A DNA stretch of 64,000 nucleotides from Gammaproteobacteria bacterium 39-13 (GTDB lineage: Bacteria; Pseudomonadota; Gammaproteobacteria; Berkiellales; Berkiellaceae), in NCBI GenBank assembly GCA_001898235.1, contig MKTN01000027.1, positions 18,035 to 82,034 on the forward strand, written 5' to 3'. Each line of letters starts with the position of its first letter. Within the stretch, counting starts at the first letter, position 1. Shown here piece after piece: positions 3,986 through 24,548 of the stretch. The position numbers were made by a program, and so were the translations under genes. The notes under the pieces were generated by a model. The model made no database searches and had not been told where the DNA came from. It worked only from the letters and a program-made list of their open reading frames with translations.

Positions 3986-4048
3986 TGTAGCGAAAATACC
4001 TGAGCAATCATTTTTTTACTAAAACATCTTGAAAGATAATGTTTTAAT
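3986..4048 (+). promoter_or_regulatory. Box1 (TGTAGCGAAAATACCTGAGCAATCA, 3986-4010) plus extended -10 (TGTTTTAAT, 4040-4048)
   Basis: This is one of five copies of the same bipartite element. The -10 ends 34 nt before ATG 4082. Confidence 0.5.
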
Positions 4049-4081
4049 TTGGAGGAATTTCAAGCTAAGAGGAAAAATATT

Positions 4082-6067
4082 ATGGAGCAAGGTCCACAAC
4101 AATCTTCAATCGAAGATCTAGACAAAAAATTGAGGGGCATGACAATTGAAGAGAGATCACGAGGAGCTGGCAATAAAGCAGATGATCCAATACATATGTC
4201 CTTTGATAATATTCACGATGCCACAGCTATCCAAGCTTCAACAAGAAGATTATGTGAAAAATTTATAATTCCGTCAAATATGACTGTAGAAGCAATACAA
4301 GAAATCTTAGATAAATTAGATGAGCAGTATCAAGAAAATTTCAAAGCTTTTAGAAGCACTATCAGCCCAATTAACGTCAAAAAAATTGCTGGCTTTCAAA
4401 AATTACAGAGTGTAATCCAGCATTCACCTCTATTAACTTATATCAAGCATGTTATGGGACTGTTAAACCATCTCCATTTTCACACAACGGTAGTTTTATC
4501 ATTTGAGCAAGGAAACCAAATCACCTCCAATATCCTCAATTTATTTGCTGATTGGATAGAACTCCTCGAAATACATAACCTCGCCCCTTGCGATCTTCAC
4601 AAAATCATGCTCGCTTACATCTTAAACAAAGGTAATCTAAATGCCGCTTTGTACATCCATGAGGGTGTCACACATTTTAACATCTGGAATGAATTAACAG
4701 ATAGCACTTCTGGCGAAGCTGAACATCATCACAATAAAGCAAGATTCTATTTTGAAAAGGCATTGGAAATAGCCCACTTAAATCAACAAAACTTGAATGA
4801 TTTCAATTCGCATTATGATAGAAATCCTATAGATGAAATAAATATCCTCATTCCATTTATATATGCTCAATCATTTTCTGGTCATTTAAAATTAGCCAGA
4901 GAAAATGTAGAGAAAATCTATTATCTTATGGTAATTCATCCTTGGTGTTACATCCTTGCTTTGGTTGCTTTTGACTTTTACGCAAGACGGCTAATGATGT
5001 ATTCTCCCACTTCTTATCATGAAATAATTGAGATGATGGAGAGAAATATTGCACTCAGTAAAAAAACCATTATTGGTCCACCAGATTTTGATCATGGCAG
5101 ATATACTCAAATTCAAGAAGAAGACTTTATTGTTTTATCTGATGGTTACCAGACAGAAATTGCAGATTGGGGTAAACCCTATCACCTTGTAAAAAAATCC
5201 GCTAGCACCAGCGAAATTATCTATACTCTGCCTTCTGCAGATTTTAATAATCAAATAAAAAGACTGCTACCCAAGATTCTTCGAGATTTACCGTCCAAGC
5301 AAGTATCTATTTCAGTAAAGGCAAGAGAGCTTTTCATTTCATTTCCATTAGACATTCCTCTTGCTGTAATAAAGCAGGCCGTTGAAAAAATAGGTGAAAT
5401 ATTTTTAAATCCCGAACCTACACTTAAATCATCAGAAACGGTTATTTGTCAAGATATTGTACCTACCAATCCAACTTGTTCTCAAGGAACAGATGGGTTC
5501 AAGTCATCTCTTGAAGCTACTCCTGTGACAAAGGACATAGGACAAAATGACAATGAAAAAGAGAAGGAAACTAAAGAGAAGAAGGAAAAAGGAAAAAGAG
5601 TGAGAAAGGGAACGCAAAGAAATAATAATAAAAGTTCTTCTGCGACAACTTCCACAAATCATTCCATACCTAGGTTACAAGCAATCTTAGAAACAAACTC
5701 ACCCACTGCACCGTTTAAAAAGCAAGAATTTGAACATGCAACAATATGTGAACTTCAAGGTGCCAAAGGTATTTTTGTTGCTTATAATCCTCAATCTACT
5801 TTTGTTCAACCCAAAAAGCTCGATAAAAAAATCGAAACTCGCTACAGAAACATGTTCCGTTATCCTCATCTTGCGAGCTCCACCAATTGCAATGGCTTTA
5901 AATGGATATCTAATAATATGGGCGCATGTCTTATTGGCAAATTAACCCGCGAAAGTTATAGATTGTTTCCTCTTGAAATAGAAATTAATGATGTTGGCGA
6001 AACAGCATTTTTCTATGGTGAAATCAGAAATAGTAAAAAGGGGAAAAAAGCAAATCGATATGGATAA
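4082..6067 (+). CDS. paralog A of a ~660-690-aa family (helical N-terminal region, K/E-rich NLS-like tract, conserved C-terminal module)
   Basis: I moved the start from 4049 to ATG 4082 (MEQGPQQ...) because paralogs B and C start the same way and GAGGA lies 9 nt upstream. The sequence aligns by eye with 6343, 8654 and 17089 along its whole length. Confidence 0.85.
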   Translation: MEQGPQQSSIEDLDKKLRGMTIEERSRGAGNKADDPIHMSFDNIHDATAIQASTRRLCEKFIIPSNMTVEAIQEILDKLDEQYQENFKAFRSTISPINVKKIAGFQKLQSVIQHSPLLTYIKHVMGLLNHLHFHTTVVLSFEQGNQITSNILNLFADWIELLEIHNLAPCDLHKIMLAYILNKGNLNAALYIHEGVTHFNIWNELTDSTSGEAEHHHNKARFYFEKALEIAHLNQQNLNDFNSHYDRNPIDEINILIPFIYAQSFSGHLKLARENVEKIYYLMVIHPWCYILALVAFDFYARRLMMYSPTSYHEIIEMMERNIALSKKTIIGPPDFDHGRYTQIQEEDFIVLSDGYQTEIADWGKPYHLVKKSASTSEIIYTLPSADFNNQIKRLLPKILRDLPSKQVSISVKARELFISFPLDIPLAVIKQAVEKIGEIFLNPEPTLKSSETVICQDIVPTNPTCSQGTDGFKSSLEATPVTKDIGQNDNEKEKETKEKKEKGKRVRKGTQRNNNKSSSATTSTNHSIPRLQAILETNSPTAPFKKQEFEHATICELQGAKGIFVAYNPQSTFVQPKKLDKKIETRYRNMFRYPHLASSTNCNGFKWISNNMGACLIGKLTRESYRLFPLEIEINDVGETAFFYGEIRNSKKGKKANRYG

Positions 6068-6102
6068 ATGCCGTATCATTTAAAAATAACGAAGCATTTG
6101 AG

Positions 6103-6141
6103 GATTCAGGAGGCAGATCTGCCTTCTGAATCTTTTCTTTC
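6103..6141 (+). terminator. rho-independent terminator after paralog A
   Basis: A 15-bp stem GATTCAGGAGGCAGA/TCTGCCTTCTGAATC (one G-U pair) is followed by TTTTCTTT. Confidence 0.6.
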
Positions 6142-6248
6142 CCGCCTTTTTCGAAGAAAGTGAAAGAAACTACTATTTTTCAAAGAACACAATAGCATCC
6201 TTAATTCAATGCTTAAACGTATAAAAAAACCGACGCTCGTCGTTTTCT

Positions 6249-22459: not shown

Positions 22460-23458
22460 TTAAGATGTTTCTAGTAAAAGCATTGCCTCTTTAAAAGTAG
22501 GCTGTGCCATTTCTTCCAATGATTGGTTCAATACTACCATCGCATACAAAATTAAATCTTGTGTCGTCTCGTAGGAGTATTTTCCTTGCTTTCGCCCTTC
22601 ATACCATTGCTGAAATGTAGGCACTTCGCCGTGATAAGACATCATACCGGCGCTATAAGCATGATCAAAAAAATGTAAGGCATGGTAGCAATAGGATACT
22701 TGCTTCATGAGAGCAAGCTTTGCTATTTCCAAGGCATTTGGCTTTCTTGTCATATATTTCTCTAGAAAGAGAAGTTCTTCTTCGGTGTCAAAACAATTTT
22801 GCTGACACACTGTCGCCAAGTCAAAATAGGGATCTTCAGTCCCTGCTGCTTCAAAATCGATTAAATAAATCTGTTTGCCATCGTATAAAATATTTTCACT
22901 GTTTAAATCATTATGACACGAAGCCAATTGTCGATGTTTAACGAGGATTAACATAATATCTTGAATAGTTTTATAATATTCTATGATTTTTTTTGATGGC
23001 GTTTTCGTTATCATTTTGCCAATAAAATCACTCATGTAAGGAAAAATAACACAATAAGCCTCTGGCATTTTTTCGCTGTCATGTAACTTTGCTAAAAGTG
23101 CCGGCATTTGATTAAAAATAATTTCTTTGGTCACCTCCGCTGAATGAATATAATCCATAATAAGAATGCCATTTTCAGCATCTGCATAATAACATTGTGG
23201 CGCAATGCCTAATCTTGCTCCATATTGCGCACAAATGACTTGCACACGCCTATCCGCTATAGGTTGATCTAATCCCATGAGTCTTAATACATAAGGATGA
23301 TTTTTTACCGTTATCTTCCACATCGAGGCAGTAGATCCACCCCCAACAAGTTTGTTGATGGCATCTGGGGTATCAATGTTAAATGCTGTTTTTAATCCTT
23401 TCACTGCGCTATCTAAGCGAGAAGGTTCAATAAAATCCTTCATTTGTTCATCCTGCAT
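22460..23458 (-). CDS. choline/ethanolamine-kinase-like phosphotransferase (APH/ChoK fold)
   Basis: Brenner motif HNDLNSENIL followed by LIDFEAAGTEDPYFDLA, a choline-kinase-type motif. Confidence 0.7.
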   Translation of the reverse strand: MQDEQMKDFIEPSRLDSAVKGLKTAFNIDTPDAINKLVGGGSTASMWKITVKNHPYVLRLMGLDQPIADRRVQVICAQYGARLGIAPQCYYADAENGILIMDYIHSAEVTKEIIFNQMPALLAKLHDSEKMPEAYCVIFPYMSDFIGKMITKTPSKKIIEYYKTIQDIMLILVKHRQLASCHNDLNSENILYDGKQIYLIDFEAAGTEDPYFDLATVCQQNCFDTEEELLFLEKYMTRKPNALEIAKLALMKQVSYCYHALHFFDHAYSAGMMSYHGEVPTFQQWYEGRKQGKYSYETTQDLILYAMVVLNQSLEEMAQPTFKEAMLLLETS

Positions 23459-23741
23459 TCACTAAAATAAAATGGATCCACATTCGAAGTTATAACGTTA
23501 GCATAAAATAAAAAATTATCATAATGAGGATAAAAATGAGAGAAATCACATCATTGTGACATTGATGTATTCAAAGAGAAATTCTGAATATTCGATTTTT
23601 AGCAATTATGCTGTTTTGGCTTTTCTCAAGATATAACATTGACATTCTTTGTCGCTTCGCTGCACCTCTTTTCTTAAACCCTCTAACCACAAGATGCTTC
23701 AATGCAAAATATCAATAGAGATCTCTTCTTTATCTCATTGC

Positions 23742-24296
23742 CTAATAATACTGCTCAGCATCGTAAAAATCAGGGAATGCACACCAGCTAAGTAGAAAAT
23801 ATAAACCCATATTGGCAGCGTACAATGCCCAAGACTTATTTCGTGCTTTTCCCCACAATGCTAATGAGGCTAACAAGACAGTCATTAATATATTTTCTAG
23901 CGCAGTTAAAACTGTTGGCCAATAATTATGTGCGTTCAACTCCCTTTCAATAAAAAGATAAATCCAGAGGAAGTTGAACATGCTAAAAAATGCAATTTTG
24001 ACCAACAATTTACGTCCAAAATTTTTATTTGCATGGGTCCAATAAAGATGTAATGAATAAATACACGGTAATAAAAGAATAGCTACAACCTGCGGAAATA
24101 ATGCTTTAAGCAACCCCATGTTAAGAGGCCATGGCACTAAAAAAGTGGGTCTTGAGGTAATATGCATTAGGCTTGCGCTAAATGTGAGCATGACAGCTCC
24201 CAATAACATCCACACTTGTAGTTCATTTTGCCTATAAAATTGTTGCCAAGATTTCATATTATTCATTCCGATAAAACGGAACATCATTTTAAGCAA
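23742..24296 (-). CDS. polytopic inner-membrane protein, unknown function
   Basis: About 5 hydrophobic helices. The start is ambiguous because several N-terminal Met codons are available. Confidence 0.5.
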   Translation of the reverse strand: MLKMMFRFIGMNNMKSWQQFYRQNELQVWMLLGAVMLTFSASLMHITSRPTFLVPWPLNMGLLKALFPQVVAILLLPCIYSLHLYWTHANKNFGRKLLVKIAFFSMFNFLWIYLFIERELNAHNYWPTVLTALENILMTVLLASLALWGKARNKSWALYAANMGLYFLLSWCAFPDFYDAEQYY

Positions 24297-24485
24297 AACA
24301 AACCCAACGACTTAGGGAAATATGACCAAAGCTTATTTTAAGAAGATAAAGCTTAAGCGTGATAATACAATAAAGTACAATGACCACCAGATTAGATATC
24401 AATTCTTATCCTATCTCTCTATAAGCCAAATCCGCTCATTTCCTCTTCCCTAATAACAGTAAAAACAAAAATCTTTGCATTTAGT

Positions 24486-24548
24486 TGTAGCGAAAAGACC
24501 TGAATCATTAATACCGTCATTAACTAACTAAAAAAATTATGTTTAAAT
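24486..24548 (+). promoter_or_regulatory. Box1 (TGTAGCGAAAAGACCTGAATCATTA, 24486-24510) plus extended -10 (TGTTTAAAT, 24540-24548)
   Basis: This is the same bipartite element as upstream of the four paralogs. The -10 ends 40 nt before ATG 24588. Confidence 0.5.

Follow-up and report, generated by a model that had tools for sequence, protein, structure and literature searches.

Berkiella, intranuclear Legionellales of amoebae, are not axenically cultivable. Dot/Icm and many eukaryote-like effectors are encoded by Berkiella (PMC9803151), while in Legionella accessory regulators act via conserved elements which lie at a fixed distance from the -10 and belong to a few effector genes (PMC13555631). 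Here we analyzed a 64-kb stretch of DNA (contig MKTN01000027.1, positions 18,035 to 82,034; the whole stretch is called the window), in which an 18-base element, Box1 (TGTAGCGAAAAnACCTGA), stands upstream of five genes, each time followed by a proximal box (TRTGnTnTAAT). Box1 and the proximal box form a specific composite cis-regulatory signature, which has a fixed geometry and is under selection. We consider it rather probable that Box1 is the operator of a dedicated, lineage-specific regulator, presumably an activator, which would act in a class-I-like manner here and in a -35-replacing-like manner in Candidatus Berkiella aquae (B. aquae).

The window was searched with the query TGTAGCGAAAANACCTGA, allowing up to three mismatches. 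Exactly five sites were returned (starting at 3986, 6249, 8558, 16994 and 24486), the same five that a first-pass annotation of this DNA had listed; 0.29 were expected by chance, and five or more matches appeared in none of 100 shuffles. All five are on the plus strand, intergenic and oriented toward the downstream gene, at 96, 94, 96, 95 and 102 nt from Box1 start to ATG (copies 1 to 5). Copies 1, 3 and 5 are exact consensus and copies 2 and 4 carry three differences each; the annotation had called copy 4 diverged, rightly, and had passed over the equal divergence of copy 2. Under a position weight matrix (PWM) built from the five sites, their own scores were 25.3-30.5 bits, and the best other site in the window (16.7 bits) fell in coding DNA of a ribosomal-protein operon. 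The TG of the proximal box starts at 4040, 6302, 8611, 17045 and 24540, that is 54, 53, 53, 51 and 54 nt after the Box1 start, in agreement with the 51-54 nt annotated; the distance from the end of the proximal box to the ATG (33, 32, 34, 35 and 39 nt) ranges over 32-39 nt, slightly off the 33-40 nt given before. The boxes are as follows:

3986 to 4003, plus strand: Box1 copy 1, TGTAGCGAAAATACCTGA; exact match, PWM 30.5 bits, identical in strain L001
4038 to 4048, plus strand: proximal box of copy 1, AATGTTTTAAT; extended -10-like, T at -11
6249 to 6266, plus strand: Box1 copy 2, TGTAGCGAAACTCACTGA; PWM 25.7 bits
6300 to 6310, plus strand: proximal box of copy 2, TATGTTCTAAT
8558 to 8575, plus strand: Box1 copy 3, TGTAGCGAAAACACCTGA; PWM 30.0 bits
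8609 to 8619, plus strand: proximal box of copy 3, TGTGTTTTAAT
16994 to 17011, plus strand: Box1 copy 4, TGTGGGGAAATAACCTGA; PWM 25.3 bits, 14/18 identical to the B. aquae box
17043 to 17053, plus strand: proximal box of copy 4, TATGATGTAAT; overlaps an alternative TATTAT hexamer at 17040-17045
24486 to 24503, plus strand: Box1 copy 5, TGTAGCGAAAAGACCTGA; PWM 30.3 bits
24538 to 24548, plus strand: proximal box of copy 5, TATGTTTAAAT

Counting both strands, the window contains the string TGNTNTAAT 17 times; between genes it is found just four times, each time in a Box1 promoter, and copy 5 has the variant TGTTTAAAT as its proximal box. As to the surroundings of the copies, a small hairpin (CGACG-CT-CGTCG) with a T-run at 6228-6248 directly abuts copy 2, and synteny with strain L001 ends at ~3928, 58 nt upstream of copy 1.

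Mean pairwise identity was 0.82 within Box1 but fell to 0.30 over the preceding 45 nt and to 0.39 over the 32 nt that follow. Since Box1 is kept to this degree and its flanks are not, though the paralogous proteins encoded downstream of copies 1 to 4 are merely 34-47% identical (paralogues 2-4 aligned to paralogue 1), Box1 is selectively conserved, and the earlier claim that its conservation goes beyond a recent duplication holds. The conservation would be only apparent if, with no dedicated factor at work, a promoter fragment had been spread by gene duplication and promoter capture or gene conversion. Such a history gains something from the four of five copies that precede paralogues, with some similarity in the spacer (e.g., TTATTTTCTAC), and from strain L001, whose promoters are 95-100% identical to those of the window merely because it is the same species (~95% DNA identity), which makes them uninformative for footprinting, as are those of L107, likewise the same species. 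We nevertheless hold it very improbable, as i) the flanks have decayed to near-random identity and Box1 has not; ii) copy 5 has nothing but the two boxes in common with the others, its spacer being unalignable; and iii) despite low protein identity, two metagenomic organisms (L101 and L102) keep the layout and B. aquae keeps the box. A miniature inverted-repeat transposable element or other mobile promoter cassette was rejected, for similarity stops at the two boxes.

The proximal box is best read as the core promoter, with an extended -10-like sequence and no -35. We compared it in ten promoters: the five of the window and those at L101 4955-4965, L102 1462-1472, L104 5970-5980, L097 9959-9969 and L098 3919-3929. 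All ten have TG at -15/-14, separated from the hexamer by one base, and T at -7, and nine have TRTG; position -11 is T (four), C (four) or G (two) and never A. The box fits TRTGnTATAAT at each specified position but -11. Among the bases of -10 elements, A at -11 is the one conserved best and the one on which the mechanism centers, and it is key to promoter melting. A scan with the sigma-70 consensus found no promoter with a -35 at copies 1, 2, 3 and 5, and at copy 4 called a weak TTATCA-17-TATTAT. Of the annotated extended -10 without a good -35, the TG register and the missing -35 at four copies can thus be retained; the description as an ordinary extended -10 cannot. The identification as a -10 is strengthened by the merely 20 nt that separate the box from the ATG in B. 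aquae, which leaves room for a start site and a GAGG Shine-Dalgarno sequence, nothing more. With neither A at -11 nor a -35, the promoter would be expected to be weak without help, and the missing A may reflect selection against a self-sufficient -10. That an extended -10 perfect in all else should consistently lack this base is a genuine, if minor, peculiarity in terms of promoter biology.

Another account has the boxes read by an alternative sigma factor, with no separate activator: the Deg-type protease would point to RpoE, the TGTGC-type extended -10 to RpoS. L098 and L102 do carry TGTGCTnTAAT with C at -13, a base favored by sigma-S. Moreover, Berkiella encodes rpoS, rpoE, rpoH, rpoN and fliA (PMC9803151). 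The 51-54 nt between the boxes, however, are far beyond any -35/-10 pair; by inspection of the five regions, no sigma-E (GGAACTT-N16-TCnAA), sigma-54 (GG-N10-GC) or sigma-28 pattern is conserved, the sigma-E pair being conserved neither upstream of 24588 nor upstream of the paralogues; and sigma-S might read the proximal box but would leave Box1 unexplained. This account therefore seems to us very improbable. A sigma-32 pattern in the five regions and a resemblance to a XerD/dif arm in the proximal box of copy 5 were also rejected on inspection.

Comparison among organisms was based on contigs encoding relatives of the paralogue family or of the protease. The proteins of the window turn up on metagenome contigs only; orthologues of the protease (58-62% identity) are found in B. 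aquae and two metagenomic organisms, and a member of the paralogue family is also encoded by B. aquae. Judged by these relatives the host is a Legionellales bacterium related to Candidatus Berkiella, in line with the Legionellales host that had been proposed. In L101 TGTAGAGGAAATCCCTGA is followed by a 35-nt gap, TGTTCTAAT, 35 nt and the ATG; in L102 TGTAGCGTAAATCCCTGA is followed by a 35-nt gap, TGCTCTAAT, 46 nt and the ATG, a second paralogue 60 nt further on being without a box. The 53-nt spacing from Box1 to proximal box thus recurs before family members in both metagenomic organisms. Across seven promoters, including that with copy 5's non-homologous spacer, the box-to-box distance is 51-54 nt and is constrained in the window's lineage.

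In B. aquae (L104 5944-5970, LKAJ02000001.1), a perfect 10+7+10 palindrome, ACCATGTAGG-GAAATAT-CCTACATGGT, lies 30 nt before the start of the family member P0014; it ends 4 nt before TATGTTCTAAT, from which the ATG is 20 nt away. The palindrome contains the Box1-like TGTAGGGAAATATCCTAC, identical to window copy 4 at 14 of 18 positions, and this 18-mer ends 6 nt before TGTTCTAAT. The box-to-box distance of B. aquae differs from that of the window's lineage by 27-30 bp. A palindromic form suggests a DNA-binding protein, probably a dimer. In the window, only 4-5 of the 10 arm positions are complementary (counted by eye on copies 1 and 3).

A decayed TATTTT(C/T)TA(C/T) stands 5-6 nt after Box1 in copies 1-3 and at L101 4927-4936 and L102 1434-1443, at about the position that TATGTTCTAAT takes in B. 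aquae (4-5 nt after its Box1). In the window these are:

6272 to 6281, plus strand: possible decayed relic of a proximal box, TATTTTCTAT, 5 nt after Box1 copy 2
8581 to 8590, plus strand: equivalent relic after Box1 copy 3
4010 to 4019, plus strand: equivalent relic after Box1 copy 1

Such relics suggest that a duplication of ~30 bp pushed Box1 upstream.

The protease orthologues of B. aquae and L098 keep a proximal box (TGATGTAAT and TGCTTTAAT) at 31-33 nt before the ATG, and that of L100 has a canonical promoter. A canonical promoter (TTGACA-17-TATCTT) is also found in L105, a distant member of the paralogue family. Taken together, Box1 appears to be an old element tied to one subfamily, which the protease gene would have acquired in the window's lineage. 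At L098 3785-3807 there is also a split Box1-like sequence (CGTGGGGAAAACATCGGACCTGA) of uncertain homology, 136 nt upstream of the TGCTTTAAT box; it lies in a GC-rich stretch with hairpins (TAGCGT...ACGCTA and ACGGC-GTA-GCCGT) that has no Rfam match.

A signal at the level of RNA or peptide in a long 5' leader could take three forms: a structured element, an upstream open reading frame (uORF) ending at the Box1 TGA, or a two-codon mini open reading frame (mini-ORF), (A/G)TG-NNN-TAA, in the proximal box. An in-frame TGA does close Box1 in seven copies (window, L101 and L102), though not in B. aquae, and a start codon (ATG or GTG), a hydrophobic codon (TTT, TTC, CTC, CTT or ATG, for Phe, Leu or Met) and TAA are present in nine of the ten promoters. 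Each form meets obstacles nevertheless: i) no Rfam match was obtained at gathering score or at E<=5, the consensus fold has only -1.05 kcal/mol, and the folding z-scores (-0.9 to +0.7) are not significant; ii) the frames that end at the Box1 TGA range from 11 to 72 codons in length, and those of copies 2, 4 and 5 lack a start codon; iii) no Shine-Dalgarno sequence precedes the mini-ORF, which in B. aquae begins 4 nt beyond the palindrome, with the main ATG 20 nt on, and cannot be in a Box1-driven transcript. We judged the mini-ORF reading of the proximal box to be a by-product of the motif, and a leader signal of whatever form to be very improbable.

Under the preferred reading, the host is an intracellular bacterium of Dot/Icm type related to Berkiella, in which a regulator bound at Box1 would control a few effector-like genes, and each target would have an extended -10-like core promoter (TRTGnTnTAAT, no -35) that is weak unaided. 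Assuming a start site 7 nt after the hexamer, the center of Box1 is calculated at -58.5 to -61.5 in the window (a 3-bp spread) and that of the homologous box of B. aquae near -31. A protein at about -58 to -61 could recruit RNA polymerase via the C-terminal domain of the alpha subunit (alpha-CTD) in class-I style. In the window's lineage an insertion or duplication of ~30 bp appears to have relocated Box1 upstream. The sign of regulation, the start sites, the binding of a protein and the alpha-CTD contact are what we infer from sequence, and this applies equally to the class-I activator role which the first-pass annotation had given to Box1, since the B. aquae palindrome near -31 would suit a -35-replacing activator or a repressor.

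The same palindrome carries the case for a repressor, which would silence the effector-like genes as long as no signal releases it. In B. aquae it would occlude the promoter; in the window's lineage it would block UP-element or alpha-CTD contacts, or act by looping. Spanning about -43 to -17 and abutting the -10-like box, the palindrome has classic repressor geometry, and a bound protein could mask the UP-like, AT-rich tract by which Box1 and the -10 box are separated in copies 1-3. In seven promoters, however, the site is centered at about -58 to -61, upstream of the polymerase footprint, where simple occlusion fails, and a core promoter with neither -35 nor A at -11 looks too weak to need repression. 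Repression is hence the most serious of the alternatives in our view, yet an unlikely one.

Several points weigh against Box1 as the site of a dedicated activator: i) the -31 site in B. aquae would fit a repressor as well as an activator; ii) with no A at -11, the identity of the proximal box as a sigma-70/sigma-S -10 is not certain; iii) the 3-bp spread in the spacing of Box1 and proximal box (51-54) is loose for strict dependence on the face of the helix; iv) dyad symmetry of Box1 is lost in the window's lineage, where the binding mode is hard to tell; v) four of the five window copies share ancestry, so that independent observations are few (roughly the paralogue ancestor, the protease gene, L101/L102 and B. 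aquae); vi) the distant family members L103, L105 and L106 have no Box1; vii) the protease orthologues of B. aquae and L100 are likewise without Box1, which makes the link narrow; and viii) no regulator gene (helix-turn-helix) adjoins any of the loci examined.

A bolder version would make Box1 plus the TRTGnTnTAAT lacking A at -11 a new class of activator-dependent promoter for effector genes of the Berkiella clade, with a -10 under selection to be non-functional alone and an operator that moved from -31 to -61. A clade-specific regulator would then supply the step that the lone -10 misses; its operator would have migrated from the palindromic -31 site of B. aquae to the asymmetric -61 site via the ~30-bp duplication, and the regulator, its targets unchanged, would now work in a class-I-like way where it formerly worked in a class-II-like or -35-replacing one. 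We put this forward tentatively, as a possibility with the balance against it.

The genes downstream of the five copies are listed below; the first starts with the ATG at 4082, not at 4083.

4082 to 6067, plus strand: paralogue 1 (661 residues); no Pfam or NCBIfam match; AlphaFold2 model
6343 to 8388, plus strand: paralogue 2 (681 residues); 47% identity to paralogue 1
8654 to 10729, plus strand: paralogue 3 (691 residues); followed after a 130-nt gap by an F-box gene (10860-12296)
17089 to 19107, plus strand: paralogue 4 (672 residues); followed after a 116-nt gap by an F-box/ankyrin gene (19224-20465)
24588 to 27704, plus strand: Deg/HtrA-type serine protease-like gene (1038 residues); PDZ domains ahead of Trypsin_2

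The paralogue family as a whole matched nothing in Pfam or NCBIfam. An exhaustive HMMER search of 1.84 billion representative proteins found 26 relatives; a search with the full-length family profile gave merely five proteins (the K/E-rich linker perhaps saturated the candidate list, a guess), and one with the C-terminal domain alone returned nothing. In the AlphaFold2 model of paralogue 1 (predicted local distance difference test score, 78), an N-terminal alpha-solenoid is joined by a disordered K/E-rich linker to a C-terminal beta domain, and the model had no match in the PDB at E<=0.001. The conserved C-terminal beta domain of the family ends in GKKANRY.

The protease has no sequence similarity to the paralogues; copy 5 does therefore tie an unrelated gene to the other four, as had been proposed. 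Its PDZ_3 and PDZ_1 domains precede Trypsin_2, it scores far below the cut-offs for DegP, DegQ and DegS, and its closest solved relatives are the plant Deg2 and Deg9. By sequence it looks like a eukaryote-type Deg/Nma111-like protein and not a periplasmic stress protease; of the former label "HtrA-like", the Deg/HtrA type can stay and the periplasmic stress protease cannot. The N-terminus of the protease is not signal-like.

Hairpins follow genes 1 and 2, one of them terminator-like (6103-6132, between paralogues 1 and 2), which suggests that each paralogue is its own unit with its own promoter. The gaps after paralogue 3 (130 nt) and paralogue 4 (116 nt) contain no terminator-like hairpin, and the F-box genes there may be co-transcribed with the paralogues. 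The N-termini of these two F-box proteins (MQGPS and MKNGPA) echo the M-x-Q-G-P start of the paralogue family, to which the F-box protein is otherwise unrelated by sequence comparison. Neighboring genes encode F-box, ankyrin, J-domain and kinase proteins, a eukaryote-like and effector-like context. Further upstream, on the minus strand, a broken gene (3464-3809) encodes a small protein with a signal-peptide-like start (MKSIKLILF...).

Exact Box1 was also scanned for in a genome collection and a metagenome collection, the source organism being in neither. The 33 matches from genomes and 54 from metagenomes were all single chance matches, in unrelated organisms or coding DNA. One match, TGTAGCGAAAAAACCTGAAATATTTAAC, recurred in the metagenomes (L047, L062, L064, L066, L072, L074 and L077); it sits in an intron-containing, plant-type ABCG/PDR transporter gene and was rejected as chance, being no relative of Box1. 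A literature search for the motif strings found nothing relevant. As far as that search reaches, no earlier description exists of the motif or its presumed regulator, and the mode of control is familiar from Legionella.

For specialists in Legionellales regulation the finding should be useful, although it changes no general concept. The motif nominates a co-regulated set (a rare family of 660-690 residues, a eukaryote-type Deg protease and perhaps the two F-box genes) and can serve as bait sequence for finding the regulator. Set beside its B. aquae counterpart, the motif also supplies a natural case of an operator whose position and symmetry both changed while it stayed with the same core promoter. 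About the timing of host-targeted protein expression in Berkiella-type bacteria almost nothing is known, and the motif provides a testable handle on it.

How does this arrangement compare with known systems? It resembles class-I activator promoters (e.g., CRP at -61.5 on lac) in the center of -58.5 to -61.5 calculated from an assumed start site, the AT-rich tract, the weak core and the near-constant spacing. It departs from CRP class-I sites in sequence (TGTAG-N6-nACCT in Box1 versus TGTGA-N6-TCACA, with the right half mismatched) and in a spacing that varies by 3 bp. T-R-T-G-n with T-12, T-10, A-9, A-8 and T-7 and no -35 is the pattern of extended -10 promoters, from which the ten promoters differ in that -11 (T, C or G) is never A. 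In B. aquae 9 nt lie between the end of the 18-bp box and the -10 hexamer, and the center of the box is near -31, which is comparable to the -35-replacing pho box of PhoB; unlike the pho box, the B. aquae box is a palindrome and not a direct repeat, and its position is not kept in the window's lineage. The B. aquae inverted repeat, with perfect 10-bp arms, also abuts the -10 at 4 nt from the box, as LuxR-type sites do. The RfaH ops/JUMPstart sequence GGCGGTAGnnTG has GTAGCG alone in common with Box1 (six of 12 positions), a T-run replacing its upstream GGCG, and was rejected as an identity for the box. The consensus sequences of CRP, FNR, TyrR, ArgR, Lrp, FadR, MarA and the lux box were rejected for Box1 on inspection; the best partial fits were an Lrp-like YAG-N9-CTR frame and the TGTAGG in common with the lux box, with the wrong geometry in both.

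With respect to Legionella, neither the PmrA tandem repeat (TTAATATT) nor the CpxR (GTAAA-N6-GTAAA) or LetA (TGTAAG-N6-CTTACA) pattern occurs in Box1 or its flanks, as the first-pass annotation had noted. What sets Box1 apart from the Legionella elements is the lack of a GTC...GAC inverted repeat and of any TTAATATT or GTAAA repeat, and the window box is asymmetric and ~30 bp further upstream; unlike the case of LexR1, no regulator gene adjoins the targets, and the host is a Berkiella relative, not Legionella. On the other hand, Box1 shares with the elements of the Legionella accessory regulators (LexR1, RegK3 and LelA/B/C; PmrA and CpxR) the form of a short element at a fixed distance upstream of a -10 without a good -35, and like them it recurs, patchily between species, before a small number of effector-type genes of a Dot/Icm bacterium (PMC13555631).

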